Assembly (NCBI RefSeq): GCF_023055435.1
Contig: NW_025963802.1
Location: 11,408,001 to 11,472,000, forward strand
Direction of reading: 5' to 3'
DNA: 64,000 nt
Source of the DNA: Haliotis rufescens
Lineage: Eukaryota
Shown here: piece after piece, positions 6,650 through 37,841 of the stretch
Layout of the letters: each line of letters opens with the position of its first letter
Position numbering within the stretch: position 1 is the first letter of the stretch
The notes under the pieces: model-generated
What the model was told of the DNA's origin: nothing
The model's input: the letters and a program-made list of their open reading frames with translations, nothing else
Databases searched by the model: none
Program-made: the position numbers and the translations under genes

Positions 6650-7030
6650 TTTTTAGATCGTACTCCCATCAAGGCAGAAGAAGAGGACAAATTACTTGGT
6701 CTCATATTTGACATTCTTACCACACATCAAATATCTTAAGGCAAACTGCCTGAAGGCTCTCGACTTGTTAAAAGTCGTTTCAAACTCCGAATGTGGAGGC
6801 GATCAGACAGCCCTCCTCCACTTGTACAGGTCATTAATACACACTAAGTTAGATTATGCTTCCTTTGTCTATGGCGGAGCCTGCAAACGCAATTTATTTA
6901 AAAATAGGCCTTTATGGTGTGTAACGTCTAAGGCTCTGTCTTGCAGCTTTGAGGACCTCTCCTGTGGATAGTTTGCATGTGGAAGCTGATGAACCTTCCC
7001 TCGAACAACACCGCATTAAACTATCACTGC
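6650..7030 (+). mobile_element. degenerate LINE ORF2 fragment (I/Nimb-clade-like, RT thumb region)
   Basis: Translation LGLIFD...TFLPHIKYLKANCLKALDLLKVVSNSECGGDQTALLHLYRSLIHTKLDYASFVYG is typical of I-clade ORF2; frameshifted. Confidence 0.75.
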
Positions 7031-7109
7031 ATTGCATTCCAATCAATCACTTGTGTTTTCAGCCCTCTGTAAATACATGTTCATCGTCTGTGAGTACTGG
7101 ATCGTGATT

Positions 7110-7545
7110 TGTTGGTGCTGGTCAGTGATCTGTGGGTACTGGTCACTGCTCTGTTGGTGCTGGTTCACGACCTGTTTGTGCAGGTTCGTGGTCTGTTGGT
7201 GCTGGTGCACGATTTGTCGGTGCAGGTTTTCGTGGTCTGTTGGTGCACGACCTGTCGGTGCAGGTTCGTGGACTGTTGGTGCTGGTGCACGATTTGTCGG
7301 TGCAGGTTCGTTGTCTGTTGGTGCTGGTTCACGACCTGTTGGCGCAGGTTCGTTGTCTGTTGGTGCTGGTTCACGACCTGTTGGTGCATGTTCGTAGTCT
7401 GTTGGCGCTTGTACATGGTCTGTTGGTGCTGGTTCACGACCTGTCGGTGCAGGTTCGTGGTCTGTTGGTGCTGGTTCACGACCTGTCGGTGCAGGTTCGT
7501 GGTCTGTTGGTGCAGGTTCGTGTTCTGTTTGTGCTGGTCCACGAT
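7110..7545. repeat. minisatellite, 42-bp unit made of two 21-bp subunits
   Basis: Unit gttggtgctggttcacgacctgtcggtgcaggttcgtggtct, about 10 copies. Confidence 0.9.
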
Positions 7546-9027
7546 GTCTTGTATTTTCTTAAGCTGTGGCGGATTTCATTTACGCCCTATCAACATTCAT
7601 TGATCACATTCATTCGTTTAACACATTTCTGCTTCTTTACATTACACAATTGTTAACGATTAATGTATTAAATTAAACACTTAATGAACACCTAGTTCTT
7701 TGCGTTATTTGACCTGCGATCAGAATGTCCACTCCACTGAGTTGTCTAAAAGTGATATGACTTAAAGTGACTTTCCAATATCCCCTGAAAGCACTAGCTT
7801 TAGAGTTGAAGGATTTTATGTGCCGGTGTCATGCTATTTACTTGGAAATACCACCAAACACGAATACGCATTTTTTAAGGATAAAATGATTTGTTTACAA
7901 AAATCCGATATCAAGTCTGAAATATCTATTATTATTCATTATTTTTCATTTTCTATTGATAATATTAAAATACAATCCTCGTGACTGACGTAATGCCCAG
8001 TTTAATTGACAAAGATGTTGCGCGACCATTTGATGTATTTGGAATGAAGTTAACTAGATGTGTAATTTCGTTTACACGATGCGAGTAGTTCTGCGTTCTG
8101 TGGTTCTGCGCATGCGCGAAGAGGGCATTGTGGGTAATGCGTGCGCATCCAAGATGGCGGCACTTCCATTTTCTGGGAGGCTTGCGCCTCAAAGATGGCG
8201 GCACGTCCGGTTCCGAGGGGCCATCTCCCATCCAAGATGGCGGCACGGTCCCTCCAAGATGGCGGGAAGGCGGTAGGGCGGAGGGTTTTTTGGTTTGGTG
8301 GACGGGTGGTTGGGTGGGTGGTGAAGAGGGGGCGTGTGCGCATCCAAGGTGGCGGCACTTCCGGTTCTGGTTGTGCGTGCGCACACAAGATGGCGGCACT
8401 TCCGTTTTTCGTTTTCTTGCAACAAAATTCCACAAATGACATCATCGGGTATTATGATGTGATTGTAAACTTTGAGGTGCAAGGTCTCGTTCCACAAGGC
8501 GATCGTATTGTAGCGCAATGACAGTCGTTCGTCTAAGTTAAAGTATGTGAGTGGCGATCACCTTAGCGCTACGATCATGTTGTGGAACGGACGCCTGAAT
8601 TCTAATTGTGAATCGACATGCACAGACATGCGTGACGTTGTCACTCGCTCATCCATGCCGAGGTGTTGGCACTCGTGTCTCCTTGCAAAACGTGGTGCCA
8701 CGCGTGACTACAAACAGACGATCGATAAACATGCGTGACGTTGTCACACGTTCATCCACGCCGAGGAGTAGGCACTCGTGTATGCCTACATGCGTTCTGT
8801 CACTCGTGTCTCCATGCAAACGTGATGTACTTCGTGTCTCCATGCAAACGTAGTGTCACGCGTGTCTCCATGCAAACGTGGTGTCATGTGTGTCTTCAAA
8901 CAGACGTTTATAAATATTATTATTTATAATAAAATATTATTTATATTTATAACGATAGAGAGAGATCGATTGACATACGTGGTGTTTTACTCGTGTCTCC
9001 ATGCAAACGTGATGCCACTCGTGTACA

Positions 9028-9093
9028 CATACATACATACATACATACATACATACATACATACATACATACATACATACATACATACATACA
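9028..9093 (+). repeat. (TACA)n microsatellite inside left TIR
   Basis: About 16 TACA units; the mirror position in the right TIR is an N gap. Confidence 0.95.
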
Positions 9094-9277
9094 TAGAGGC
9101 GTGGTGTCACTCGTAGGCGTGTACCTTCAAGAGAACGGGGAGTGTGGGGGTTCTTTTGGATTGTTGTTTGTGTTGGCAAAGCAAAGGATCAAAGCGTTCT
9201 TTCGGGGGAGATGGGTGGCCCTGAATAGGGCCGTTGGAAACAAACTGGAAACAAGCTGGACGAGGTTTGTCTCTGTT

Positions 9278-9520
9278 TTACATTACTTTCCTTGATCTCG
9301 ATACTAGATAAGAATACGGACCACTCCAACAGTCGGGTACGTCAATTCCGCGTTGAATAGTTCGTTGTAATGCTGCAATAGCCTCTGACGTGTTCTTAAA
9401 CCAGTGCGGGCTCTGCGATAAGATCGTCTCCGATTCATCATGTGAGTAGGCCACTATTGTCCAGTTATACACTTTACTCATCCACGGACATTGTTGACTG
9501 TTGGTCTGAGACAGCTGCAT
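9278..9520 (-). CDS. small ORF of unknown function retained in the Polinton-like element
   Basis: 80 aa (KVYNWTIVAYSHDESETILSQSPHWFKNTSEAIAALQRTIQRGIDVPDCWSGP), preceded on the minus strand by CCAAT (9626-9630) and TATAAAA (9592-9598). Confidence 0.4.
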   Translation of the reverse strand: MQLSQTNSQQCPWMSKVYNWTIVAYSHDESETILSQSPHWFKNTSEAIAALQRTIQRGIDVPDCWSGPYSYLVSRSRKVM

Positions 9521-9699
9521 CGAGACGACATGGTTGATCTCTCATGCAGTGCTCGGACAGTGACGGTGTTCGTGGCTTCGCTCATTTTTATTTTTATAGG
9601 AGAGGCACTGAAACCCTGCTTCCTGATTGGTCGAAAACGCAGCACGCCGATGGGTCCGTTCCGGCGCCTGGTCTGAGCCTCGGTTTTGCCTCAGTTTTA

Positions 9700-11060
9700 A
9701 GACTGACTGTACATCCCTGTAAGGCTGACTCTACATCCATAGTGATTTAAACATAATTATAAAACTGATTGATCACTGATGTGCGACTGACAGTACGCTC
9801 AGGTAATGCTGCCGGTAACCTACTACGGTTGGATTAACTTACATCAACTGACTGTACAACCCTTGAGACTGACTGTATACCCCGTAAGACTGACTATACA
9901 CCCATATAAGGCTGACTGCACACCCATGTAGGGCTGACTGTACACCCCCTGTACGACTGAGTGTACACCCCTTAAGAACAACAGTACAACCCTGAAAGAC
10001 TGACTGTACACCCATGTGAGACTGACTGTACACCTATGTAAGACTGACTGTACACCCATGTAAGACTGTCTGTACAACTCTGTAAGACTGACTGTACACA
10101 CATGTAAGACTGACTGTACACCCATGTAAGGCTGACTGTACGTCCATATTGACTAAAACATAATTATAAAACTGATTGATCACTGATCGAGAGGGGCGCC
10201 CTCATTTGACATTGCCATAAGTACTTCCTTACTGATAATATAACGGTGAGGAAGTACGTATATTACATACTTCCTAAATGATAATTTACGTACTTCCTGA
10301 CTGTTATATTATCTCGTGCCCTATCTCATTCAATCAGATCTTAGTATTCGCTACTGGTTGGCCAAGCTATGAGGACATCCCAGTTACGGCTATAATTATA
10401 AAACTGATTGATCACTGATGTGCGACTGACAGTACGCTCAGGTAATGCTGACTGCACAGATCTGTAAGACTGACTTTACATCCCTTAAGACTAACTGTAC
10501 ACCCATATAAGGCTGACTGTACATCCATGTAAGACTGACTGTACAACCCCGTAAAGCTGACTGTACACCCCTTAAGACTGACAATACACACCTTGTAAGA
10601 ATGACTGTACACCACTGTAAGACTAAGTGTACAACCCTGTAAGACTGACTGTACACCCCTGTAAGACTGATTGTACACCACCACAACCCCGCAAGACTGG
10701 CTGTACAACCCCGTAAAACTGACTGTACAACTCTGTAAGAGTGACTGTACACCACTGTAAGACTAAGTGTACACCACTGTAAGACTGAGTGTACAACCCT
10801 GGAAGACTGAGTGTACAACCCTGTAAGACTAAGTGTACGCCACTGTAAGATTGACTGTACAGTCCTTAAGACTGATTGTACACCACCACAACCCCGCAAG
10901 ACTGGCTGTACAACCCCGTAAAACTGACTGTACAACTCCGTAAGACTGACTGTACACCACTGTAAGACTGAGTGTACAACCCTTGAAGACTAAGTGTACA
11001 CCCCTGTACAACTGACTTACAACCCTGTAAGACTGAGTGTATAACCCCGTAGTACTGAGT
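9700..11060. repeat. ~21-bp minisatellite (gtaagactgactgtacacccc) forming the element core
   Basis: Dozens of degenerate units, interrupted at ~10150-10440. Confidence 0.9.
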
Positions 11061-11411
11061 AAAGTCTATTCCTGGCTTATCACCTGATGAATCGGAGACG
11101 ATCTTATCGCAGAGCCCGCACTGGTTTAAGAACACGTCAGAGGCTATTGCAGCATTACAACGAACTATTCAACGCGGAATTGACGTACCTGACTGTTGGA
11201 GTGGTCCGTATTCTTATCTAGTATCGAGATCAAGGAAAGTAATGTAAAACAGAGACAAACCTCGTCCAGCTTGTTTCCAGTTTGTTTCCAACGGCCCTTA
11301 TGAGGGCCACCCATCTCCCCCGAAAGAACGCTTTGATCCTTTGCTTTGCCAACACAAACAACAATCCAAAAGAACCCACACACTCCCCGTTCTCTTGAAG
11401 GTACACGCCTA

Positions 11412-11758
11412 NNNNNNNNNNNNNNNNNNNNNNNNNNNNNNNNNNNNNNNNNNNNNNNNNNNNNNNNNNNNNNNNNNNNNNNNNNNNNNNNNNNNNNNNN
11501 NNNNNNNNNNNNNNNNNNNNNNNNNNNNNNNNNNNNNNNNNNNNNNNNNNNNNNNNNNNNNNNNNNNNNNNNNNNNNNNNNNNNNNNNNNNNNNNNNNNN
11601 NNNNNNNNNNNNNNNNNNNNNNNNNNNNNNNNNNNNNNNNNNNNNNNNNNNNNNNNNNNNNNNNNNNNNNNNNNNNNNNNNNNNNNNNNNNNNNNNNNNN
11701 NNNNNNNNNNNNNNNNNNNNNNNNNNNNNNNNNNNNNNNNNNNNNNNNNNNNNNNNNN
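11412..11758. other. assembly gap
   Basis: N run; other gaps at 36020-36155 and 51230-51357. Confidence 1.
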
Positions 11759-13139
11759 CACGTTTGCATGGAGACACCAGTTAAACACCACGTAGGTCTA
11801 TCGCTCTCTCTCTATCCTTATAAATATAAATATTACAAATAATAATATTTATAAACGTCTGTTTGAAGACACGCATGCCACCACGTTTGCATGGAGACAC
11901 GCTTGACACTACGTTTGCATGGAGACACGAAGTACATCACGTTTGCATGGAGACCCGAGTGACAGTACACATGTAGGCATACACGTGTGCCAACTCCTCG
12001 GCGTGGATGAGCGAGGGACAACGTCACGCATGTCTATCGATCTATACTTCTATAAACGTCTGTTTGTAGTCACGTGTGGCACCACGTTTTGCATGGAGAC
12101 ACGCGTGACACCACGTTTGCATGGAGACACGAATGGTAGCACGCATGTAGACATACACGAGTGCCAAGTCCTCGACGTGGATGAGCGAGGGACAACGTCA
12201 CACATGTCTATCCATCTATTCTTCTATAAACGTCTGATTGTATTCACGCGTGGCACCACGTTTTGCATGGAGACACGAGTAAAAAAACACACACGCCACG
12301 TTGGCATACACGTGTGCCAACACCTCGGCATGGATGAGCGAGTGACAACGTCACGCATGTCTATCGATCTATACTTCTAGTACCGTCTGTTTGTAGTCAC
12401 GCGTGACATCACGTTTTGCATGGAGACATGACATGTCGCTGCATGCCGATTCACCTTTAGAATTCAGGCGTCCGTTCCACAACATGATCGTAGCGTTCAG
12501 GTGATCGCCACTCATATACTTTAACTTAGCCGAACGACTGCCATTGCGCTACAATACGATCGCCTTATGGAACGAGACCTTGCATCTCAAAGTTTACAAT
12601 CACATCATAATACCCGATGATGTCATTTGGGGAATTTTGTTGCAAGAAAACGAAAAACGGAAGTGCCGCCATCTTGGATGTACACGCGCCACTTGGATGC
12701 GCACGCATTACCAACAATGCCCTCTTCGCGCATGTTCAGAACAACTTCCGGTCCTGTAGTACTGCTACCAACTACTGATGCGCACCTGGATATATAACTG
12801 ATTCAAAGACAGTCTGTTACATCATTGATCAACCGGTTAGTTTACTTTTTTATGTAGAATATTCTAGATTGGCTCCGAACAGGACTGAATGCACCATATG
12901 TTATTGCATGATAACATGGTTACTTCAAAATGGTAATGCTCATATATATTAAGTTAAACATTGAATTGATAGCGTGGGCATGTATTGCTTACAATTTACA
13001 TGAAACCTCTTTAGTCAAGACATTTTGAAAACAAATTTACCAATCCAAGTCCGCCGATTCTACTGTGAGTCCCATCGTTGGTACTTAATCAAGCCAAGTC
13101 TAGTTTTTTACTGACATTTCTCTTCAAACGATTTATAGA

Positions 13140-13907: not shown

Positions 13908-13977
13908 ATGTCGTGTCACTGTTTGCTGGGACTAGTAGCTCTTTGCTTGGCCTTGGATGTGGCTACTCCGGAGCAAG
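13908..13977 (+). CDS. SMPDL3: SMPDL3-like exon 1 (signal peptide MSCHCLLGLVALCLALDVATPEQ)
   Basis: ATG at 13908, hydrophobic leader, G|GTAAAT donor in phase 1. Confidence 0.85.
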
Positions 13978-16900: not shown

Positions 16901-19900
16901 GGACGTGTGACATTCCTGTCGCAAGCGCTGACTAAAACAGGTGAATGCAACATCGACATAACGGCGATATGTAAATATCATGTGTATGAGCATCCATCCA
17001 CTATATCAAGATAGCTGGCATGCAGTCAGTCATGACACTGAGTCATACTGCTTCGTTATGATTTCAGCCGGCTCTTACGACAAGCAGCTGGTACTGGGGG
17101 CTTATTCGTCACTAACAATATCCACAGGGTCAGTAAAATGAGGCACACAATGTGTTTCTCAGGCCTTCTTAGCAAGTCTCAGGAAAGATGTTTAATGAAG
17201 TACCATTTCTTTGGATATGGTACTGCAGAGATTTGAGAATCTCATACAGAGAGTTACCGCTGTATATTGTCCCATTCTGCGTCTAACCTCGGGAAGAGAA
17301 GTCATTAGAGATCGATTTAGGTCGGGTTCAGTTTTGGCCAAAGACAAAAGATCATGTTTTTGTGAGCAAGAATTGAATAGACGCACTGCCCACATACTCT
17401 TGTTTTCTGTTTTTGTCAAAAACGGAGCGTTGCGATATGTCGTGTCTCCAGCTGACTAGCGGACAAAGGATACTGGCTAAAATAAGTTCAGTGTCAGGTG
17501 AGTTTTGACGATTATTGCCTGACGGTCTTGTACGAGCCGCACGAGCGAAACTTGTCGACGGATTTCGGACGTTCTCGTACTCTGAATCAAAATAGCTTGA
17601 TTTGAGGAGTTCTATTGGTGTACCATTCAAGTTGTAAGCATTTATTATCACCAGCCTGAAGTTTGTTATCGTGCCTCTATCACGGTGGTCCATCATATAT
17701 ATGTTTACTGTTTTCGCTGCTGTCATAAGGTGCATTACTCGCCTTAAACGGATTGCGAAAATACTTGATAACTGAACTGGCTACAAGTTTGTTTGGCGAT
17801 ATTACTGGAACATGTGTATGTGGTGATTATGACCAATGTTTATGATAATATCATTCCTCCAAACTGAGGACAATAATAGTTTCGTTGTTACTGTTCACCG
17901 GACATTTTGTTCGCCTGTTATTTACTGCTTCAATTAACTCTATTAAATGACATTGAGTCACACAGTGGCAAATACATAACTGTGGTTGCAAGACACTGCC
18001 ATTTAAAATAAATATAACCTGTATGTGGTTTTTAATTTGAAATTCAAACGTGCAAATCAGCAATGCAAGAATAAGCACTTTATTGACACCATTCAATTAG
18101 TCAGGTACTGGCTACATATTGACATTTTATGTTACACCAGTGAAACAGTCATGTTACACTTTCATAAAATGAAATTGGTTCACAAATTATCTTTTGCTGA
18201 GTTGTCCATTAAAAAGAAAATCCAGAACATTGCTCTATTTCAGATTTTTCTGATTATTTAAAAAACAATTTGTTAAACTGTCATATGAAATACAATAGCA
18301 AATGGTCTGGATCATGATTATTATCTTCGTCTTTAAACTTACGAAATCTGTACTTGCAAACATCGCATGGGATATTTTGGATGGTTTTATTTCAGTGTCT
18401 GTATGACAGGCTTAACTGAAGAAACCTAGACTTGCTAAATGTTTGTTCCAGTGATTTATGGCAGCTTGCTGCTTGCAGTTAAAACATTGTTCGTGATATA
18501 TGTTGTTGACACAAGTTCGATATGACGGGTAATATATGGGTTGACTTTAGAACTGTGGGAAGGGTTAATATCTATGAAATATTCTTAGGAGAGCGGGGCT
18601 TGCTGAAAAAATGGAATTGGATTTGGATTCGTATCGGAAGTACCCAGATGAATCCCATGAAATAGGTTAAATTACCAGTTTCTGATATGCAGTCACAGAG
18701 GTAACCAATCAGTGTTCAGAAATACGTATAGATATTGCATCAATGTTTATTTTCACTGCCCGTACAGTCGCTTGTCATGCTCAGTTGCGTTGGCCGGATA
18801 ATCGACACACGGCAGTTGATGAGCCCTAGCGGACAGGGCAAGACAGGGGAGTAGAAACCAGATCTTAGTACTTGTTGACAGCTTTGTGACAGGAAACGCA
18901 ATTCAATGAACAATCTTGCAAAGCTTCATATGACAGAGTACCCTGGCAGGAATAAGGTTAAGTATGGACGAGGTATGACCCGGCCAAGATGAAAAGTTTT
19001 CATGTGTTGCCATTAAAGTGAATTTATGTAGTTTTTTCAATGTATGGATAACAACATTGAATGATGTGTCAAAAGGGCTGAATTTGAATATTGGACTATG
19101 ATGAACTCCTTGGTTCGAGTTGATTTCCTTGATGTTATAAGACAACATAGTTGGATGCTTATCGTTGGATTTTCTCCGAAAGTCTTCAAATCTGTTCCGA
19201 TATATCCGATTATTTTTATAACAATGCTTACAAATTATGTTTGCATTTGGCTTAAAAGAAACCCTGTCATACAACGTCCTTAGGTAAACGATTTTTATGT
19301 GTCTGTATACTGATTAACACATTTCAGCCTTGATTCAATATCGAAAAGAAATGTTCGCAAAACAGTCAATAATCTACATCGTACCCTGATCCTATTGTAC
19401 ATTCAAAAGTTTTCACAAAGCAACTGGGACCTTTTTTCCAACCATGCAATAGCTGCCCTCCACGTCTGAATAGTCTTCCTTGAGTCGTAAACCCTCGTCC
19501 CAGGAAATGATCTGAATTCCAACCTTCTTCCATGTAGACTTCAATTCATCTCTCGACATCCCTAAAGTGCTGAACTTCTTTACTCCCACTATGTAGAAAG
19601 TTCCTCCCAAACATCCACAGATGACCAAGTGGCCACCGGGTTTTAACATTCCGACCATATTCCTGGCGTACCGTTCATAGGAGGCCACGTCTGTGGCAAC
19701 TGCTTCCAGACAGAAGGATGACGTGACGATGTCGACCTGCGGAAGGAAGTTTGGCGAAAAAGGGTTTTCCTCCCTGATGTCACAGTGTAGAATCCCACAA
19801 ATCTTGTCTCTAATGCTTACCGCTCTCTCGGGGACATCAGTTTTGCTGTAAACAAAGAAATTGTCACATATTATTTCACGAAAAGGTGTGCGTATTGTGC

Positions 19901-22900
19901 TCTTCCATTGGCATCCGTCACAAATACATGGAAAGGCAAGCCAAGTGTTCACCAGAACAACACGGGGGAAAATTGGCACAAGTTGAAATAGGGAATTGCA
20001 ACGGCATAATGATTGATGCTTCAGGTTTGGAAATGTGTTCCATTAAACATTTTGAAAGCTTTGCTAAGTCATTGGATGCTGTAACCCTGATCAAACAACA
20101 CACATCCTAGAAATTCGATTATAAATCGCAGTGCCTCCCCGCTAGGCTGAACCCAAGAAGTCTGCAGACCTCGCTTTCCTAACGATTACTGTTACATGTT
20201 TACAGAGGAACCTTCCGTACCAATGATTCGGTAAACGAAATTAAAAACGTGGGTGCCTAATTCTAAATCAATCTACAATCACTACGATATAGGCCCATGT
20301 ACCTTGAGAACCACTGAACTTGCATTACTCTGTGATAATATTTTCAGTTACTGATTATGACTATTTACGTTTAATCTTCTGATTTGCATATTTTTTGCAT
20401 ACCTGTTAAATCTACGGATTAACTAACTTTAGTTGTCAAAATATTGCTTATTTAATACATATACATTTGATGTAATAAATGATTTTGAAATTGAGTGAAT
20501 CATGTAACAGCAATGAATCCGAAAGAAGAGTCTATATTAAGAAATCCTAACTTGCCTTTTCCCTTCTATTTTGAGTACCATTTCAAATATTTTATCAAAA
20601 CTGAATTCCAAAGATCCATCGCGCCATTGCTTTAAGATGTCATTGTTACTCTGGCAGAAGTCTGACAAGAAGATGTTGTCACAATGTTGTGCTGAGCTGA
20701 TGACACTGTATATTGTTGGACCTGTCCCAATATCCAAGAGCGTTTTCCCTTTGACAGCACCTGGAACAAAGCATGAGAACAGGTAGTTCTGGGACATCGT
20801 TACGATCTCCCCTCTACTTTACTACCACCATCATCAGCTATTTAGAACGCATATTGAACTACACTATGTTGTTATTCACGGATTACTAGGATGTACAGGT
20901 TATGCGTTAGAAAACCTATAAACCTAATCAGATCGAGTAAGTGAGTCAGTTATAATTAAACGTCACCATGGCAATATTTCAGCCATATTGTGACGAGAGA
21001 AAGTGTAACTTTAACAAAATTGTACTGTATAAACATCTGTCGCCGATGGACAGAACACACTAGATAACTAGACAATCACATATTTAGATAAAACTTGTTT
21101 GAGAGAAAGTAAAAGAATGAACGACCTTCCAACAACACGGGCTATTGATCGCCAGCAACAAGGTAGGCAACCATACAAGGGAACGTGGGGATTTACGCTA
21201 CTTTTGTTCCCTGCCCGTTTCCAAGCATTTAATTTATCAGGGCGAACCCAGATTCGAAGCCACAATCGTTGGCTTCTCGACTCAAAGTGTTTTTGTTTTC
21301 ATTGTCTTGCAAATATTGTAATTGATGGACATCGATAGTGTCATAACTGACTTTGTAAATGAAGGTCGTGAGTTTCAGTATTTCAGTTCTATCACCGCAT
21401 GTCAACTTAATAGGGGAGGAAAGCAATACGAAACGCAGGTCTCATTTATTTTCCACTTTGATGAAACCCATGAGCACGGGTATGGTGCTAGCAAACCTAT
21501 GAACATAATCAAAGCGAACCGGGATTCGAAGCCGTCGTCGAAAGGTTTCTTCTCACCCTTTCGCAAACACCCGGTCACCACTTGATAGTGTTTCATAAAC
21601 ACATGCTCATGATACAGTTGGGATAGTACAGTCGGCAATTTCTTGCCGCAATGGAAAGGATTTTGCTGCTTTTATTTTGTTACGGAAACACAACTATATC
21701 ACAAAGGAAAGATCGCCCTTGTGCAAGACACATTTCTTTACAAGTACAAAAGAACACAGTGACTGCTTTATTGTAAGCAATCTCACAAGCACAAAATGAG
21801 TACATCAACACAAACAAGCTATTTTACCTGAGTTAAACGCTTTGTGATAATTGGTCAATATGAATGACATTAGGTTCGCAAGGATAGGGCTGGGCTCTGG
21901 GTCTTCGAATACTTGCATGTAATATTCTGGATCAAAATCTTTAGCGTAGTCGTCACAGAAGGCCATTTCTTTATCTGCCATTGTTGGTTCCTTTAAGCTA
22001 CTTCAAACTGAAAGATTAAGACAATTCAATACCACTGACTGTAAGAAGCACAACAAAGTTATACATTCATTTTCCTAACAATTGTTGAAGTTAAAACCGT
22101 AGTGATAAGTCAAGACAACACAAATATGGATTGCAGGTGCCATTACATACTTGACATGTTTTTTTAATAATACAGTGTAAGTAAATGCACCTAACAATTA
22201 GCAAATTGTCTGTTTTCATCAAAATGTACACGTATATACCTAGTTTGTATACAATACACACGCAAACTTCAAATTGAATAAAGTTTATAGGTCTTTTCAA
22301 GAACCGACATGGGTTTTGTATCATTATGCACAATTTCAAGGTAACGTAATCTGTAGCGTAAACCACACTGTACAACAGTTTTGTCATCGTTGTTGGTTCG
22401 TTTAACTGAAAGATTAAGTCAAGTCAGTGCAACAAGTTAACAATTAAGATGCACAGAATTTTATCCAACTGCTTCACTTGACGTTATTGTTTGAGTAACA
22501 ATCGGTGTGATGATGTAAATGCAATAACGAGACACAAATATCAAGAACAGTCTGAGGTTCCTTTATGTTTGTGATATATTCGGTTGAATAACCATAAGAA
22601 CACACTCGTGCATATTCTTCCACGCATGTTAGCGTTCCCGCAGACTAACGTGCAAATTCAGACTAACGTGCAAATTCAGTGCAAAACGTGAATTAATTAC
22701 TAATTCAGTTTGTATGTTGTAGGCGAATGAAATATGGTCGTTATCTACACCATATAACCTGAATTAAGAGTTTTGTGTGGATGCATGGTCAACATTTGTG
22801 ACAAAGTTAATGAGGTACAGTTTTAGAAGTTATCATCACGCGAGAGTGTTTGGGGATAGTAAATATCCTGTATTAGGAATAGAATTTTTTTAGCGAACCT

Positions 22901-25900
22901 TGGCGAGCTAAATATATAGTGTTTATTCCTAATACAGGTTATTTACCGTCCCCAAACACATAAGCGTGATAACCTCTTTATCATATAATGTCATTCTTCA
23001 ATTCTGTGCTCGAAGAATCTCTTCCCATCTCTCATAAAATTCCCTAAATATTGCAAGCAGTCACTGAACATGCGCATAAAAATATATTACATCAGAAGGT
23101 AAGTGATATGTCAGTCGGACAGTCAGTATAGTTACAACTGAAACCTGTTTCTTATACTAACTGTGACCTATAACTACATATAGACAAAAACAACAACTGC
23201 CCACACAAACTGTTTTACTTGCCTTTCGCAGCAATCCATAGGTCTCCCCGCTAGAGTAACTGCCCTTTATGAAAGGGAAACTACTCTTACCCTAGTCTAT
23301 GAGAAGTCACGTTTTTTAGAGTCTGCCTTTTGTGATATAAGGTTACGAGGTGCAGTAAGATGTCCACACAGAGACAAAACGAAACAAGGTAACAATTCGG
23401 ACACAGTTCGGCCAAATCTAACTGTTGTAAATTTGGAAAAGGTTCCAGGCATAGATACTGCAACTGATCCCGCTTGCCTAAAGTCGTCGCGAAATTGTTT
23501 CGCAATTTACATCTCCAACGTTACCAAAACTTGTAAAATGCCTAAGCTACGTCACAGTTAAACACTGATTTTCAGTATATTAGACTATTCTTTTGATAAT
23601 GACAGCAATTATGCCAGTAGTTTCTCCAGATTCCCGATGGTTAATTCTGACTGGATCGCCGAATGATAATGGCGACGCCATATTTGTTTGTAAGTCAGAA
23701 AGTAGTCCCTACTTGAACATTGATATTTGCATTTCTCTCCGCATACGACCCCAACGGATATCGTTTTTATCCGTTGGCCTTCTCCTTCCGAGAAACCTAC
23801 CCATTATATGATAAAACCATTTATCCGGTCAAAACATTGATATCTTGTATGTCAACATACAAATTTCTCATTCTAAATATCGCGTTAATGACATCAATAA
23901 ATTATTTTGATTTGTACACATCGAGTTAGTGATTTGAAAAACTACTTGCTTTTTTGTTAACATCAGGAATTTTATGTTAAGATAAATTATACTCGAATTG
24001 TTGATATCAATAAAAAGTATTTAGAAACTAACACTAGCTGTATATGCAAAGACGTTCAAACAGAAGACATGGTTATAGACGTCTACATAATTCAAAATGC
24101 CTTACCTCTTGGGACTCTGGAGTAAATGGCAACTACACGATATCGTGGGCTTGGGTCTCGAGACGACCGGACGTGTTTTGACGGAGCTCTGCATATTGTG
24201 CAGTCCTTATGGATATATTTTGCTTCACCGGCGGTGAAAAAGACAACTGACTTCCATGATCTCAAGCAGATGGTAAAGCCCAACTACTCTACTAATTTTC
24301 TAGGGTACAGCTATGAACTCCTCTCCAACATACCCCACACAAACCCCTGAATCTATTGACTTTGATATCCTCAGAGACCTTGGGGACATTTTAGGAGAAA
24401 GTGACAGGCAATCATGTGAGACTTCTCTCAAAAGCATATACAAGAATGATGAAAAACTGTTGAATGATGTGCGACACTCACTGTATGATATAGCTAAGGC
24501 AGAATGCAGTGATTTCCCAGACGGGGTACTGATAAAGAGAGTGAATCGTGGAGGAAGATCTAAAAGTATCTCAGACAAATATGCTGCAGACATATATCTC
24601 CTTTTTAAGTACATTAAAGGAGCAGTGCCACCCCATGTTATTCAAACTGATGTATTAAGCCGTCAAAGAGCACGCTACACAGATATTGGCGGATGTGACA
24701 ATGTGTATGATGTGAGTCAGGAGCTTGACCCTGAAAATATGACAAGCAAATCCAAAATAAATGATTTTGTGCCTGAAGTGTTTAACAAACTAATAGCCAT
24801 TCATGAAGAAATGATGGAAAAACTGGATTTTGTTTGCAATAAACTTTGTGATTTCCAGGACAAATATGAATTGGATATGAGAAAAATGATTGATACATAT
24901 GAAGACAAGAACAATCAACTTCAGCATTATGTCACCGAGACTAAGTGTTTGCAACTGACTGAAGAACGATTGAAGAGAGATATTTGTTCCTTGAAAAGTG
25001 ACTTGAATAACAAGAGTAAAGAAATTGTGCATCTTAAAGACCAGATTTGTACAACGATTTCGACTATTGACAAACGAGCTTGCAAAATAGACGGCAAAAT
25101 TGACTTGATGAATACACGAAACAAACTCATGTATTCTGAGGCAGTTAAGATACCAAGCCAACTAGCTCGAGATGATGCAAGCCCAGAGCCCAATACCCAA
25201 GCTTTTCCACCACTGTCCAACAGAGAAGATGTAAGCCTGTCTATCACTATTGAACCCCTAGACGAGCAGAACAATAGCTCCTGGGGTCATGACAGTGACC
25301 TTGGAAAACAAGAAACTATTCACTCACGAAAGGTTAACTTTAACCAACAGTGGAAACGTGTATTTTCTGGGGCCTCACGTTTCAACTCAAAGAGACTAGT
25401 GTTGTCCTACATAAAAGCTGATCAACCATTTGAAATCGCCAGGGACGCCATCATCGACTATGCTAAAGACCGAGGAGTGACAATTAGTAAACTGTCACTT
25501 CTGAAGCACTGGAAGACAGTCATATAACCCAACGTACACCATACGAATCCATGTTCCTAACCAGGGTGCCAAGGTCATGCTTGAAGACGATACATTCTGG
25601 CCAGAGAATGTCAACTGTAGAGAGTGGGTTCCCAGCAAAAGATGGTATGTACACAATGATGATGAACAGTCAAGATCTTAAACATGACAAGTAAATCAAG
25701 ATCCCGACTATTTGCAACCTATCTCTTGTTTCTTATGATCAGACTTGCTACATGGAATGTGCGTGGCGTTATGCATGCTGCTACTGAACTTGCTGATAAA
25801 CTTGAAAGTTGTGATATAATGTTCATTTCTGAACACTGGCTAAACAGACAAAACGAATCCTACTTAAATGGGATCCATGATGAATTTGATGTGTATTCCA

Positions 25901-28900
25901 AATGTGACAAATCAGAACTACCAAGACCTAGAGGCTCAGGAGGCGTAGCAATATTTGTTCGTAAATGGGACTGTTGTGTCTCGTCTGTGACAAACACTCC
26001 AGATAATGATCGAACGATCAGTATCAAATTGACTATGAACAATGTTCCTGTTTTTATTATAGGAACATATCTTCCATCTAGTAATGTGTTGGACAGTGTT
26101 TATTGTGAAGCGCTTGACTATGTCATACAATTATATGATGTGTATTCACAACATGGACAGACTATCATACTTGGTGACTTTAACACAGACTTACGCACTC
26201 CTGATAAACTGCGTTCCAAGTACTTAAGCAGAGTATTGAATGAGAGATCTCTGTACTCTGTGATCCCCATCGATGACGTCACTAGATATACATATTTCAC
26301 CAAAAGTGGAAATATTAAGACTATGCTAGATTACATTTTTGTAAATGTTGATTTTACACCTAATGTTGTCGGATTTGTCATTGATACAAATGTATCTTAC
26401 TCTGTATCAGATCATTTGCCTATTCTTGCCTGTCTAACTGTAACAACACCTATTAGTCAATATGGAGGGGATAAACTTAACTGGTGCAAAGCAACTGAGA
26501 CGGACCTAATGCTTTATCGTTTTGAAACTGAAAACTGGCTTCGTGATACTGTTTTTGCAATTTCAGACTACCAGACGCCAGTAGACTTTATTCAATATTA
26601 CAATGAATACATCACCTCAGCCCTTCAAAATGCAGCAATAATGTACATTCCTTCATCAAAATTCCAACCTAGGCTGAAACCGTACTGGAAAAAGGATAAT
26701 CTTAAATCATTACACAATAGTATGCGCAAGTGCCGTAAAGAATGGAAGGAAAATGGTAAAACTCGCGATAAAAGCAACATTTTTTTTGCTAGATACAAAG
26801 AAGCCAAACGGTTATTTAGAAAACAGCATCGAATCTCAAAACAAAAGCTGATAGATGATAGATACAAAGAAGTTTATGAAGCTGCTGAGGTTGATGTTCA
26901 TGAATACTTCAGGGTAGCTAAACGTTATCGTAAAAACAAAGGTCATACTCAAAAACTTGTCTATTCAGATAAATCATCTAATGACCCGAAGGATATATGT
27001 GATATGTTTGGTGAATATTACAGAAATCTAGCTGCCCCGGATATTGATCTGAAACATGATGTTCTATTTTCCTCTTACGTCAAACAACGTGTTAATGACC
27101 TTGAAAATGAGGTATTAGATAGCACTGATTCTTATGACAATAATGGTGTAGCTATAGCATCTCCCCTTTCAAAACCCTTCACTGCTGAAGAATTGATGGA
27201 TACTGCCAAATCTCTGAAAACAGGTAAATCACCAGGGCATGACGGAATCTCAAACGAGCATATTAAAAAAGCAGGTAGATCTATTCATCACCATCTCATG
27301 GTTTTATTCAATGCAATTGTGCACTATGAATATATACCATATGAGTACAACATAGGTAAAATTCTCCCAATCCATAAAGGTCATGGTAAAAGCAAGTCGG
27401 ATCCTGCTAATTACAGGGGAATAACTATGACATATGCTTTTGGTAAACTTTTGGAAAGGCTCATACTCAACAGAATCGAATCCTAGGTAACTAAAAACTG
27501 TAATTTCCCACATCTTCTCCAATTTGGCTTTCGCAAAAATGCAGGTGCAGACACTGCGGCCCTCACACTATTAGAAGCAATAGCATATTACAATGAAAGA
27601 AGTTCTCCAGTCTACTGTGCATTTCTAGATAATGAAAAAGCCTTCGACAGGGTATGGCTAGATGGCCTTTTTCTAAAACTTAATGACCTTGGTATCACGG
27701 GTAAAACATGGCGAATACTACGTAGCTCTTATATGTCTATGTACTCCTATGTCAGCTTTGCAGGCTATAGATCAGACTTGTTTCATGTACGCCAAGGAGT
27801 TGGTCAAGGCAGAGTTATATCTGCTTGGCTCTTTACATTATATATAAATGATCTGTTATGCGAGCTGGAACGCTCTAAGCAAGGACTAATCTGCCGTGGG
27901 CACATACTCCAGGCCAGCTCTTGGCAGATGATACAACACTATTTAGTAGCTCACCAACAGGCCTTCAAGATCTTCTCAATGTTGTAAATCAGTATGCATA
28001 TAAATGGCAGCTTAAGTACAATGTCACGAAAAGCCCTGTTCTAATATTTGATGTGCAGCGTAAATTTATCTGCTCTCAATCACTGTACTTGGGCAGTATG
28101 TGTGTTCCACTTCAGCAATCTATAATATATGCAGGTGTCAGGATAAGCTCTGATTAGTCTTCCTTAGAACGAACACAATTAGCTTGTGAAAAGTTAAAAA
28201 TGTTAATAAATAGTAATAATGATACTGGACTAAAGTTTGGAGGCATGAATCCAATCCCAGCAAAAAGGATCTGGGAACGAGTGATACTCCCATGCGGACT
28301 CTATGGATGTAATGTCTGGGGCTATTAACCCTCAAAGAATACGATATGCTGGAAGTTATTCAACGTTATTTCAGTAGAAAAATACAGGGCCTTCCAAAAT
28401 GTACATCAGATACTGTTGCTGTGGACAACATGGGTTTGATATCTCTCCAATCCTTTATTGACAAACAGTCACTGTTACTACTTGGAAAACTATGCCGATC
28501 CAGTTACAGCTATGTCTTTAAAAAGGTATTCATTACTCGCCTTGGCCAGTTTAGATACGAAATAGCGTTGGATAACCTCAAAAAACGATGTGCTTTGTCA
28601 CCTGTATATAACATGCTCAGACTTGTCAAAAAATACAATCTTAATGCAGAAATAGAAGATTATCTAATTAAATGTAGCTTCGCAAGTAAAAAGGCATGGT
28701 CTGATATTGTTGGAAAGGATTATTTCTGCAGACCAGGAAGCTGTATGCTCTAAGCTGCTATCTAGACTTAACTTAAATAGATATGTTTCGCTACGTAATG
28801 ATAAGGAACACAGACTCTGGCTACTTGCACTTGAACGTCCTGAACAGTTCCCAAATCTGTCTCATCTTGTACGGCTGGGATGCATAAATATAGAATCCAG

Positions 28901-31900
28901 GGAATGTCGATGTGGAATTGTAGCTCATGATATTATTAAGCATGTCTTTTTGTATTGTACATTGAATATGAATGACAGAAATGAACTATTTGAAATCATT
29001 TGTGATGTGATAGATGTCTCTACATTTGCAAGACTATGTAGTGAGGACGATGATATAATCCTGTCTGTACTACTAGGCGGTTTGCCTGAGTGTGTTAGCT
29101 CTTTATCTCAAAGTCTATGGGGTGACCTTATGGTTATTGTGTCAAGACATTGTAGGAAATGGCTGTATCTGTTACAAAACAGTTATAAGAATGCTTGATT
29201 GTCATGCATTTTGTAGTTATCATTTCTAATAATATTGTTCAATTGTACTACTGTACAGCTCTGTAATGATACATAATATCATATATGATATGTATCTTCA
29301 ATATCTGGAGGAAATAAAGAATATCTATCTATCCGGTCAAAACATTGATATCTTGTATGTCAACATACAAATTTCTCATTCTAAATATCGCGTTAATGAC
29401 ATCAATAAATTATTTTGATTTGTACACATCGAGTTAGTGATTTGAAAAACTACTTGCTTTTTTGTTAATATCAGGAATTCTATGTTAAGATAAACTATAA
29501 TCGAATTGTTGATATCAATAAAAAGTAATTTAGAAACCAACACTAGCTTTATATGCAAAGAAATACAAACAGAAGACATGGTTATAGAGTCTACATTATT
29601 CAAAATGCCTTACCTCTTGGGACTCTGGAGTAAATGGCAACTACACGATATGCCGCAATATATATACATGTACATCACAAAGTAACCAAACCCATAAGTA
29701 TCATATAGCAAGTCTACGATATCCAGTAACATCAATTTTATTTAATGAGTGACAAATGAAACTCTAGCAATCATGTGTTTTTATTTACCAAATGCAATAT
29801 TCGTTGTTATCCTTTGTCCCTTTGTCGTTTGTGATTAAAGGCGGGAGCTTTTTACAACATGACAATATTATTTACATCGACAGCCTGACGGTTCTCCGCG
29901 GGTCGGATTGCAACGTCCTCCGCTTTCTTGGGAGCCACAGTCGCCCTTCCAAGCTCCCACACACGGACGTGTAAACACTGTGCGGAGTGGGCCAGGCATA
30001 GATGGCTGTTGGAGCGGTAACCTCCCAGTGTGGCAATCGACCTGCCTTCGCCTTACTGAACACACTGATTGCAGCTGATCGTTGGGTCGCTTTCAGTTGG
30101 AGATACGTGTAACAACGTGGTAGCCAATTGTGTCTTATTTTCATCAACAGAGAATGAATACCTAGACATATGCTACCTGATAAGCATTAAAGTATTGTAC
30201 ATAATAAATTCAAACTGTTCAGGGCTTACTACACATCCTTCCTAGTTACGCTTAGAATTTTTCAGCCACTTTCCATATCTACTTCCACACAATTATGAAT
30301 GTACTTTTTATGTTCTTCTTCGCTACACCAGAGATAACGTGGCTCACATTAAAAATCAGTTCCTCAACCAAAGTCTAAACTTGGAGATCACTGAGAAGAT
30401 AACAGACGCCTTAAAGGCGGAGTTTCCAGGCGTCCCAGTTTATGGCATAATGGGAAACCATGACTGGTTTCCAGCTGACCAGTTCCCGGTGCAACAAGCG
30501 TTTCTATATAACGCTACCGCTGAACTCTGGAGAGACTGGATCGGGGACAACCAACAGATTGAGAACTTTAAGAAAGGTATTATAATATCATTTTGAATTC
30601 AAAATGACAGCAATGAGTACAGATACGTCTTATCTAACACTATGTCGAATTGACATATAACACACGTTATTTTATGCATATTGCATTTCTTTGACAATGA
30701 AAATATTCAATCACCTTTGCGACAAGTAAGTGAATTCCTCGTAGTTGTATATTCATGAATTGTCTCACAGTGGTATATGTATTGTTCTAGGCGGCTTTTA
30801 CACAATCAGGACACCCAAGGGCCTTCGGATCGTCGGTCTGAACACGGTCTTCTACTATGGCGCAGACAAACTGACCACCAACTTGACCGACCCTGCTGGT
30901 CAGTTCGCTTGGTTGGAGGAAGTTCTTCAGAACGCAACAAATGTCGGGGAGAAGGTATACTTGCCCTTGGTGTGTGTGTGTGGAGGGGCGAGATAATTAT
31001 GCTTGGAAAAAAGAAGTCTGGCGCAAAAATTTCATTGTTGCAATGTGTTGTTTTTTAAATAGTTTGGCTCGTAGTTTTAATTAAAAAATAAATCTGGTGG
31101 CGAATCCTTTTCCTCTTTCTCATCATGCGACCAATAAATGTGGTCTGAAGGAAAGAAGATTACAGACTGATGTAAACACGTTTGCCCTGTAAGCAGTTGC
31201 ACGTGGTCCTTTGTGCATCGCACATATCAGATATCAGTCGAAGTTAAGCAACGTTAGACAGCGACCATGTTCGGCGAGCATGACGATAATAGTTTCTAAG
31301 ACTTCGGTCCTTAAACACAGGTCACATGTGGGGTGACATGTTCGAAATCTGCCTCTGCCCACCCAACAGAGAATGGTTATACCTGGTAGGATGAAATTGT
31401 AATGGGAATATAAATTTTCTTTCTCCTTATAAGGTGACATCTTGGATTGTATACTCCCAGGGCCGCTGACAATGTGATTTGAGTGCACACTTATTTATTG
31501 TCCGGGTTAATAATAACCAAGAAATTCTGCTGACGTGACTTATCGTTTTAACTGACTGGCTCACTCCAGTGGTTGTCATATCTATAATGTGTATACAGTA
31601 GAACACGGATATAACGAACACGGACAGGGCGAACAAACGGACACAACGCACTGTTACAAAATCCCCGATTTATACCTTCTATATTATCCTATAATTATTT
31701 TGTTCCAAGATGGCGGATGTTTCCGAGCGAAAACGTATATAACGAACAAAGTATATAACGAACTGATTTCTCTGGCCCCTTGTATACGTAGTTCGTTATA
31801 TCCATGTTCTACTTAAGCTTTCTGCTCATATTGACAAGGGGGCACGGGTGGCCCAGTCGTCTAAGGCGCCGCGATTCGCTGTGCAGAGTTGCGTCCCTTA

Positions 31901-37221: not shown

Positions 37222-37841
37222 TGTAACGGTTTAAGGGGATCGAATTGTGCAGAGAGGCAACCAGTAGTTTATGTGTAAATTGGGTATATTGGATCTCTCT
37301 TCTACACCACAATAACCATTCAGTTTTCCATGAATAAACAATAAATGACCAACAATTATTAACAATCAATCAACATTTATTAATAAGATCAATTAACATA
37401 TTTTTATAGTTATATAAAGAATGTAAAGATCCTTTAATCAGTATTAAATATACTTACAACGAACTGATACAGTTTCAGGGGAGACAACCTAAGACTGTAG
37501 GTACGCTTCAACTTATTTCCTTCAACCTACTTCGTTAATAAGAACGAATTATAATATTTTAAAATGACTTTAACTTCGGATTCCACAAGAGAATATATCC
37601 GGCAACTTCGCACTGTATATAGAACAATGTGTAAGATTTAGAACTTACATGTACCCTCGGTTTTGAAACAGAAATCCTCGTTTTCCTACAAACCCAGCTG
37701 ATCTCTGATCACGACAGCCGATAACTGTCGACATGGACGCAAGCTCCAACGTTCATACAGTTTGGCCCTCAATCTATGAAGGTTCATACTCCAATGAACT
37801 CACACAAAGTGATAGTCAATTCTTAACATTTGGCAGTTACA
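37222..37841. mobile_element. TGTAAC...GTTACA-bounded element (solo-LTR-like or Ginger-like)
   Basis: 6-bp terminal inverted repeat with TG..CA ends; no TSD seen; copy at ~54715-55333. Confidence 0.45.

Follow-up and report, generated by a model that had tools for sequence, protein, structure and literature searches.

The window considered in this study is a stretch of 64,000 nucleotides of Haliotis rufescens DNA, in which positions 8084-12776 are taken up by an element of 4693 bp with AGTAGT…ACTACT ends. Two inverted arms enclose a core of 1634 bp, and each arm holds a copy of a small open reading frame (ORF) with a stem-loop behind it of the type seen at the 3' ends of histone genes. To the right of the element lies the host gene SMPDL3b, whose exons match H. 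rufescens at 100%. Its start codon, at 13908, is 1132 bp from the element's right end, which confirms the distance of about 1.1 kb to SMPDL3 given in a preliminary description of this DNA. The features are collected in Table 1.

Table 1. Features of the element and its surroundings. Positions are those of the window.
Feature	Position	Strand	Remarks
Left copy of target-site duplication (TSD), GATGCG	8078-8083	.	Sequence comparison of flanks
Left inverted arm	8084-9445	+	Starts AGTAGTT; weaker right-arm similarity on to ~9481
GC-rich left tip	8108-8407	+	Repeated AAGATGGCG units, plus GCGCATGCGC and CACTTCCG
Arm module common to very abundant related repeat	8416-8605	+	Sequences diverge either side of module
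Arm sub-repeats	8624-9095	+	28-bp units 8798-8886; (ACAT)17 9027-9095
Histone-type 3' stem-loop and purine-rich GAAAGAA	9192-9237	-	Rfam RF00032
Intact intronless 67-aa ORF	9278-9481	-	Reads outward; predicted beta-beta-alpha-beta fold
TATAAAAA and CCAAT	9591-9598 and 9626-9630	-	Upstream of 67-aa ORF; read off sequence
22-bp tandem array 1	9847-10141	+	13.5 units; two further units ~9698-9740
Insert of 204 bp (10188-10391) with an identical 28-bp direct repeat on either side	10160-10419	+	
22-bp tandem array 2	10448-11058	+	Same orientation as array 1
Candidate deletion junction TGAGT	11056-11060	+	Junction role inferred
Right-arm copy of small ORF	11056-11247	+	Truncated
Right inverted arm	11080-12776	-	1.70 kb; ends ACTACT
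Right-arm stem-loop copy	11288-11333	+	Same stem, different loop; 28.4 bits, E 5.9e-4 (whole window)
Right copy of TSD, GATGCG	12777-12782	.	Sequence comparison of flanks
First coding exon of host SMPDL3b (context, outside element)	13908-13976	+	23/23 identical to P0009, H. rufescens

Ends, arms and core

Sequence comparison bears out the ends first reported for this element and the exact 6-bp TSD on either side of it, the left copy of which differs at one base in sequencing run X2. Such a flanking duplication marks this pair alone among the 61 pairs of AGTAGT and ACTACT that lie 0.5-30 kb apart in the window. Polintons, also called Mavericks, are recognized by ends of the form (AGT)2//(ACT)2 or (AG)3//(CT)3, a perfect 6-bp TSD and long terminal inverted repeats (TIRs; about 0.05-2 kb). 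The element has the first of these end forms, the perfect duplication and TIRs of 1362 and 1697 bp, imperfect at their tips. In the available part of PMC8097293, Maverick ends are most often of the type (AGT)2//(ACT)2 with a 6-bp TSD, and vertebrate Maverick TIRs measure 46-1447 bp, both of which support the Polinton/Maverick-type ends proposed earlier. On end structure alone, then, the element would be assigned to the Polintons. A BLAST comparison of the element with the remainder of the window gave no matches.

When the arms are aligned, 967 columns out of 1049 (92%) agree; by segment the figures are 50/54, 225/237, 265/284 and 326/332. The inner 332 bp are closer to one another (6 differences) than are the outer parts (31 differences in 521; p 0.003), and this higher likeness calls for gene conversion, selection or cross-polishing during assembly. 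The outer arms are 93-95% alike, large indels aside. Both tips begin AGTAGTT (inverted), and there the identity stops, after 7 nt. The inverted repeats were first described as about 1.36 kb long, a figure that suits the left arm; the right arm is longer, including a run of 347 N (11412-11758) and extra 153/174-bp units, and a block of about 215 bp is confined to the left arm. The AAGATGGCG unit occurs five times in the left tip, once in the right tip and once in the other 59 kb. I take this unit, GCGCATGCGC and CACTTCCG to resemble YY1, NRF1 and ETS sites.

The core was initially described as a 21-bp minisatellite, which is mistaken: its period is 22 bp, and the 21-bp array lies upstream of the element, at 7104-7545. 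The two 22-bp arrays account for about 55% of the core, the remainder of which contains a promoter-like region, the start of a gene and an 83-bp palindrome (10234-10316, within the 204-bp insert). None of 200 shuffles was as stable as the palindrome when folded as DNA (z -10.7). Matches to Rfam miRNA families fall on this palindrome and on a microsatellite, far below their cut-offs. Within the element, the "satellite core" is of minor importance. Array 2 abuts the right copy of the ORF, at the ORF's start. The ORF's first codons and the 22-bp array unit have the 5-nt microhomology TGAGT in common, and this, together with the common orientation of the two arrays, supports the position as a candidate point of deletion.

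Galileo/Foldback elements and mollusc MITEs include, in the available parts of the sources, examples with long, internally repetitive arms and with cores of tandem repeats. The element might accordingly be a non-autonomous foldback-type cut-and-paste (DDE) transposon that has AGT ends and a 6-bp duplication by coincidence, and the sharing of an arm module with a very abundant repeat (Table 1) would agree with that. No DDE superfamily is known to have (AGT)2//(ACT)2 ends and a 6-bp TSD, however, and that combination is the defining one for Mavericks (PMC8097293, in the part available).

A small gene in the arms and the stem-loop behind it

Autonomous Polintons are 13-25 kb in length and encode pPolB, an rve integrase, an ATPase, a protease and a capsid protein, and the element, at 4.7 kb, falls outside that description. 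Pfam (E 0.01) was searched with 23 stop-to-stop ORFs of at least 62 aa, a portion of the ORFs listed for the element, and none matched, so that the earlier statement that Polinton core genes are lacking agrees with the ORFs tested. No long non-repeat ORF was found in the element. The element is not free of genes, however: it has a conserved ORF of 67 aa. A DDE transposon would fit with the want of a Polinton gene among the tested ORFs, and no transposase appeared among them either. On the other side, a small orphan gene carried in the arms suits a virus-like element, and genes within the TIRs are also reported from butterfly polintons. Taking this with the evidence of the ends, I consider a DDE transposon highly improbable.

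A search of 1.84 billion representative proteins with the 67-aa ORF returned six matches. Four are proteins of 69-81 aa, at 33-55% identity (the best with an E-value of 4e-17, at 55%), with alignments that begin near a common start, and are encoded on contigs of 0.75-1.7 kb. The other two (P0005 and P0006) are repetitive proteins and were dropped as spurious. By these alignments the ORF is a member of a real, small orphan family, one that so far as its sequences go has no tie to Polintons. A profile of the family brought back only the same four homologs, and matches to a family pattern were confirmed in none of 20 cases from viral contigs, none of 116 from metagenomes and none of 22 from prokaryotes. 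The ORF itself has no match in Pfam or PHROG, and a word-index protein search with it found nothing. A search of BFVD by fold gave no significant match (best E 0.037), the best match in PDB (8g9s_A; Z 6.0, rmsd 2.8, 63 residues aligned) is within the range of common arrangements, and the best scores in the ESM Atlas (0.87-0.88) are leads only. Given the lack of a Pfam match and the predicted fold, the ORF is not a histone.

Upstream of the left-arm ORF are a CCAAT and a TATA sequence, with three out-of-frame ATGs between the TATA box and the start of the ORF. The right copy has neither start codon nor promoter, and close to its 5' end a short stretch is deleted.

The preliminary description missed both this small gene and its putative histone-type 3' end. 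The left stem-loop scores 33.9 bits against RF00032, where the cut-off is 34 (E 5.2e-6 over the whole 64-kb window). It consists of a 6-bp stem, a 4-nt loop and ACCCA, with the purine-rich GAAAGAA 8 nt further on, and the 26-nt element begins 40 nt after the stop codon of the intronless ORF, on its sense strand. According to the available part of a recent survey (10.64898/2026.10.14.759114), histone stem-loops lie 25-60 nt after the stop codon, and G-C at position 2 of the stem and U at position 3 of the loop are diagnostic. Both arm copies have the 6-bp stem, the 4-nt loop and both of these positions. The left loop has A rather than U at position 1, and two positions of the right loop do not conform. 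Neither AATAAA nor ATTAAA occurs in the 678 nt downstream of the left ORF's stop. The two arm copies are the only Histone3 matches in the 64 kb, and a relaxed stem-loop pattern, chosen after the match had been seen, occurs twice in the window and not at all in 19 Mb of shuffled window sequence.

Candidates for the same arrangement elsewhere did not survive inspection. Eighteen loci found by DNA motif (L001-L018) are attributable to chance: none matches the ORF profile, and BLAST aligns none of them with the element over more than 35 bp. Those whose ORFs were listed resemble phage DNA. The sole canonical stem-loop match in viral contigs is antisense within a phage ORF.

Whatever the class of the element, the stem-loop might be a scrap of a histone gene's 3' end, passively captured into the arm and never used by the ORF. 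In favour of this, the two copies have unlike loops, both of them non-canonical, and ATGs precede the ORF. Decay of the loop, however, is to be expected in an old, immobile copy, and a passive scrap does not account well for a stem-loop that follows the stop of a conserved ORF at the canonical distance, on its sense strand, with a purine box in place, CCAAT and TATA upstream and no poly(A) signal. Nor did the element ORFs tested include a histone-coding remnant. I regard passive capture as rather unlikely.

Depth in sequencing runs and the origin of the element

The preliminary description allowed for either deletion in place or mobilization in trans. In the latter case, the 4.7-kb form would be a non-autonomous (satellite or defective-interfering) Polinton, copied by the pPolB of a helper and inserted by the helper's integrase. 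That both termini and the TSD are intact is in keeping with mobilization, and named non-autonomous Polinton families exist (PMC9341505). In the runs, the depth of arm-related sequence is tens to thousands of times that of the flank, leaving room for a mobilized family, and the shared arm module reaches a summed depth of about 1,900-11,700 times the flank, which is not a copy number. By comparison, the available part of PMC8097293 reports a median of 8 Mavericks per vertebrate genome, far less than this abundance.

Several observations point the other way. A contig from run X2 spans 7754-8129, across the left junction. X14 (organism B) and X15 (organism C) each have one contig at flank depth that shows differences both at 8043 and at 8086-8097 and so appears to extend over this junction as well. 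The insertion thus appears to be common to three organism labels. In X2, X14 and X15 the flank contig reaches about 46-55 letters into the element, from which the first 16-25 bases of the element behave as private to this locus, and among the positions listed there is none where many contigs begin. The segment 8272-8319, in the left arm, is near single-copy, at 1.3-4 times flank depth in all four runs, and of the 3374 X1 contigs aligned, 2548 are less than 95% alike. The divergence of the tips after 7 nt and of the outer arms by 5-7% indicates that the element has not recently replicated. Mobilization in trans therefore seems to me unlikely. As side observations, X15 has no cover at 7744-7983, and run shares for 8084-11400 are 0.27-0.45, figures without bearing on the core. 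None of the 24 loose-end rows listed, out of 1291, belongs to an empty-site contig; with the right flank outside the stretch compared, this carries no weight.

Of the two origins, deletion in place fits better, given the divergent tips and the differences and indels of the outer arms, the left junction seen under three organism labels and the low depth of the left-arm segment. As judged from its sequence, the element looks old and was likely deleted in place. My preferred explanation, which I hold to be somewhat more probable than all others together, is that an old Polinton has lost its interior, keeping in its arms the 67-aa gene and a stem-loop that would have let the parent use the host's SLBP and U7 to form the end of a message. 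A Polinton integrase would have inserted the element, producing the 6-bp TSD. By a single deletion, with the 5-nt microhomology as its joining point, the right-arm ORF would then have been fused at its start to the left-hand 22-bp array, and pPolB, integrase and the capsid module would have been lost. The copy would have been immobile since, while its arms and tips drifted apart. In the parent, a cassette of CCAAT, TATA, intronless ORF, stem-loop and purine box may have yielded an mRNA of histone-like kind, not polyadenylated and timed to S phase, the phase in which expression would bring most benefit to a DNA element that replicates itself.

The host gene and comparison with known systems

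That a Polinton should have shrunk is ordinary; that its arms should carry a histone-type cassette is not. The available part of 10.64898/2026.10.14.759114 treats processing by SLBP/U7 as a pathway of histone mRNA and finds no protein components of the pathway in genomes of large DNA viruses, and a literature search turned up no report of a histone-type 3' end in Polintons. I put forward only tentatively the broader proposal that an animal Polinton lineage expresses an arm-borne gene through the host's stem-loop/SLBP/U7 snRNP system and that its abundant non-autonomous derivatives have carried signals of this type across the abalone genome. If it were true, a virus-like element would employ an RNA-end system thought reserved for histones, and its message, not polyadenylated, would be turned on in S phase or in oocytes. 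Use of the cis signal by Polintons would offer a first handle on the timing of gene expression in elements that have never been cultured, and it would supply a mobile element from which non-histone genes could obtain histone-type ends.

The element also carries YY1/NRF1/ETS-like motifs, which thereby come to lie upstream of SMPDL3b at a distance of about 1.2 kb; this appears to hold for more than one abalone taxon. The suffix N marks non-autonomous elements in Repbase. One such, the zebrafish Polinton-1N1_DR, reportedly serves a host gene as a start site specific to blood (PMC9341505), which provides a precedent for an effect on SMPDL3b. Tlr1 too has been termed a non-autonomous polinton (PMC5499653), and the miniature non-autonomous form is thus already known and not new in itself. 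The element is likewise gene-poor with Polinton ends, a likeness to Polinton-1N1_DR by description and not by sequence.

With animal Polintons/Mavericks (adintoviruses) at large, the element shares (AGT)2//(ACT)2 ends, a perfect 6-bp TSD and long TIRs, those of butterfly polintons being about 2 kb and gene-bearing. It differs in its size (4.7 kb against 12.7-24.6 kb), in its diverged arms, in having no detected genes for pPolB, integrase, ATPase, protease or capsid, and in the histone-type 3' end in its arm, a feature not described for Polintons in the available parts of the sources compared.

Metazoan replication-dependent histone genes, with their RF00032 stem-loop, HDE and SLBP/U7 snRNP, are similar in their intronless ORF, TATA box, 6-bp stem and 4-nt loop, in the 25-60 nt spacing, the G-C at position 2 of the stem and the U at position 3 of the loop, and in ACCCA, the purine-rich box and the want of a poly(A) signal. 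In contrast to these genes, the ORF here is not a histone and is located in the arm of a mobile element, the left loop has A at position 1, and there are upstream ATGs where histone mRNA has a short, clean leader.

Finally, the mollusc DTC84 MITE and oyster Helentrons, as presented in the available parts of their sources, resemble the element in being mobile elements with short tandem repeats arrayed at their centre. Those are short, whereas the present element has arms of kilobase length, Polinton end motifs and a 6-bp TSD.

Ends, arms and surroundings of the element

The element occupies 8084-12776 (4693 bp), and both of its tips read AGTAGTT inward. The preliminary description had given it AGTAGT...ACTACT ends and an exact 6-bp target site duplication (TSD), GATGCG, and both are confirmed: GATGCG directly flanks the element at each end, and none of the other 60 among the window's 61 AGTAGT/ACTACT pairs spaced 0.5-30 kb apart shows such a 6-bp duplication. 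The proposed inverted repeats are also present, with 967 of 1049 aligned columns identical between the arms, but they differ by large indels in repeated units, and the tips are identical for 7 nt and divergent beyond. The right arm contains a run of 347 Ns. Over four segments (8100-9445 against 11080-12745) the arms differ by 13 transitions and 28 transversions, an excess of transversions that is unusual for simple decay.

The core, a minor feature of the element, had been described as a 21-bp minisatellite. Its period is in fact 22 bp, and the 21-bp array lies outside. None of the 23 element ORFs tested matched Pfam, in agreement with the claimed absence of Polinton genes. The neighboring gene on the right is SMPDL3b (a Haliotis rufescens protein matches its last-exon query with 100% identity across 96% of the query). 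Exon 1 (23/23 identical) starts 1132 bp from the element, as the earlier figure of about 1.1 kb implied.

Other features of the window are listed in the table. The methyltransferase-like exons presumably belong to an NNMT/PNMT-like gene, and the two distant copies of a 21-bp tandem repeat suggest a local segmental duplication.

Features of the element and the rest of the window
Feature	Position	Strand	Remark
Left arm	8084-9445		
Right arm	11080-12776		
67-aa ORF	9481-9278		reads outward
Short upstream frames	9481-9545	minus	end overlapping the 67-aa ORF start codon (ATGA and ATGAGTAA overlaps)
RF00032 stem-loop, left arm	9192-9237	minus	Rfam 33.9 bits, cut-off 34; E 5.2e-6, whole window
RF00032 stem-loop, right arm	11288-11333	plus	Rfam 28.4 bits, cut-off 34; E 5.9e-4, whole window
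Insert between 22-bp arrays	10188-10391		204 bp
TGAGT	11056-11060		common to array unit and ORF start
21-bp array	7104-7545		outside element
Same array as open frame	7043-7558	minus	171 aa of HEPAPTG-like repeats; lies immediately upstream of the element and belongs to another repeat
LINE-like ORF remnants	6657-7107		adjoined by the array
Methyltransferase-like exon	19413-20042	minus	antisense within SMPDL3b span
Methyltransferase-like exon	44519-45046	minus	near-identical to preceding
LINE, nearly complete	24304-29198	plus	inside SMPDL3b span; ORF1, endonuclease-like and reverse-transcriptase (RT)-like frames, broken; labels from reading translations
Second RT fragment	40699-42069	minus	label from reading translation
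Short 21-bp tandem repeat	37350-37399		
Same repeat	54848-54897		17.5 kb apart

The arm gene and its 3' end

Each arm carries a small gene, the 67-aa ORF, the right copy of which has no start and carries a short deletion. A phmmer search of 1.84 billion representatives gave six matches, four of them 69-81-aa proteins (E 4e-17 to 9e-6, 33-55% identity) whose alignments begin near a common start; these four are unnamed singletons, each on a contig of 0.75-1.7 kb. The remaining two were repetitive and were discarded. The ORF matched neither a Pfam nor a PHROG family, and its predicted model (beta-beta-alpha-beta, pLDDT 74.7) gave no significant match in a structural search. The ORF represents a real family, without a tie to Polintons in the present results. 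The overlaps at its start codon are reminiscent of termination-reinitiation coupling.

Judged by sequence, the arm gene carries an unexpected, putative histone-type 3' signal. The two arm copies are the sole matches within 64 kb to Histone3 (RF00032), the Rfam family of the histone 3' UTR stem-loop. The 26-nt element starts 40 nt past the ORF stop, and is predicted to fold into a hairpin whose stem has 6 bp and whose loop has 4 nt. Behind it come ACCCA and, after another 8 nt, GAAAGAA; neither AATAAA nor ATTAAA occurs in the 678 nt downstream of the left ORF stop. A recent survey places the element of histone-type ends 25-60 nt past the stop and treats a G-C pair at stem position 2, together with a U at loop position 3, as diagnostic (10.64898/2026.10.14.759114). 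Both copies show these two features. The layout has been linked to S-phase expression in a cnidarian (PMC5011920). Counting against a histone-type end are the A at left loop position 1, two departures in the right loop and three out-of-frame ATGs upstream of the ORF start. That the stem-loop is passive, whatever the class of the element, is unlikely; that Polintons use the histone pathway is a tentative possibility. Among the papers listed in full-text searches, which covered few subscription papers or Repbase reports, none was seen to tie a histone stem-loop or SLBP to Polintons, Mavericks or adintoviruses. In the adintovirus paper the word histone comes up a single time, in connection with a SET domain.

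Interior, copies and age

Moving inward from the left arm, one meets the ORF start, TATA and CCAAT boxes, followed by the 22-bp arrays. The arrays share one orientation and therefore both look like left-side interior, and the second directly abuts the first codons of the right-arm ORF copy. A single microhomology-assisted deletion probably occurred at the shared TGAGT. The insert between the arrays, bounded by identical 28-bp direct repeats and containing an 83-bp palindrome (fold z -10.7) with repeated TACTTCCT, may have arisen by a nested insertion that made a long target duplication, or may represent an origin-like hairpin.

The data show the structure, the ORF family, where the stem-loop sits and the shared junction; the following steps I infer. 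An integrase would have inserted the element, one internal deletion would have removed its interior, and it would have been immobile since. The parent would have carried a cassette (CCAAT-TATA-ORF-stem-loop-purine box) whose transcript SLBP/U7 would have cut, giving an S-phase, non-polyadenylated message. I consider this account, as a whole, somewhat probable.

Part of the element is present in 18 of 24 listed runs (three organism labels, six studies). Contigs of four runs (X1, X2, X14, X15) were placed at 80% likeness, and only on 7600-9020. The flanks had a depth of about 13-44; arm bins lay mostly at 20-1600 times that depth, 8416-8605 at about 1900-11700 times and 8272-8319 at just 1.3-4 times. 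These are summed depths, not copy numbers, and are therefore read only as related arm sequence being highly repeated. Most placed contigs fall under 95% likeness (2548 of 3374 in X1). Outside 8416-8605 the abundant arm relatives diverge. Membership of the 4.7-kb form in a trans-mobilised family seems rather unlikely.

The 8416-8605 module is shared with a repeat whose depth in each of the four runs is thousands of times that of the flank. Its relatives differ on both sides, show a ~53-bp unit in tandem, and are possibly a major unannotated abalone family.

One X2 contig (7754-8129) spans the left junction, which appears to be spanned also in X14 (organism B) and X15 (organism C), in each case judging by one contig that carries differences to the left and right of it; an X1 contig ends 8 letters inside the element. 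Because the left junction appears to occur in several labels and the outer arms have diverged by 5-7%, the evidence points to an old shared insertion with no recent replication. The innermost 332 bp of the two arms resemble each other significantly more closely than the outer portions do (p 0.003), which counts against a simple account of this kind.

Relation to known Polintons

In vertebrate Mavericks the commonest end motif is (AGT)2//(ACT)2, TSDs are 6 bp, TIRs are 46-1447 bp and intact copies are 12.7-24.6 kb, with 96% of loci defective (PMC8097293). The ends, TSD and arms thus bear out the Polinton/Maverick type first proposed, whereas the Polinton gene content was not found, so the element is not an autonomous Polinton; it probably derives from one, in a form already known. 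That it is a DDE foldback element is improbable. Non-autonomous Polintons are already known, and the element is hence not new in this respect. The N suffix of Polinton-1N1_DR I take to mean non-autonomous. That element has been named as a host start site (PMC9341505), and Tlr1 is regarded as a non-autonomous polinton (PMC5499653).
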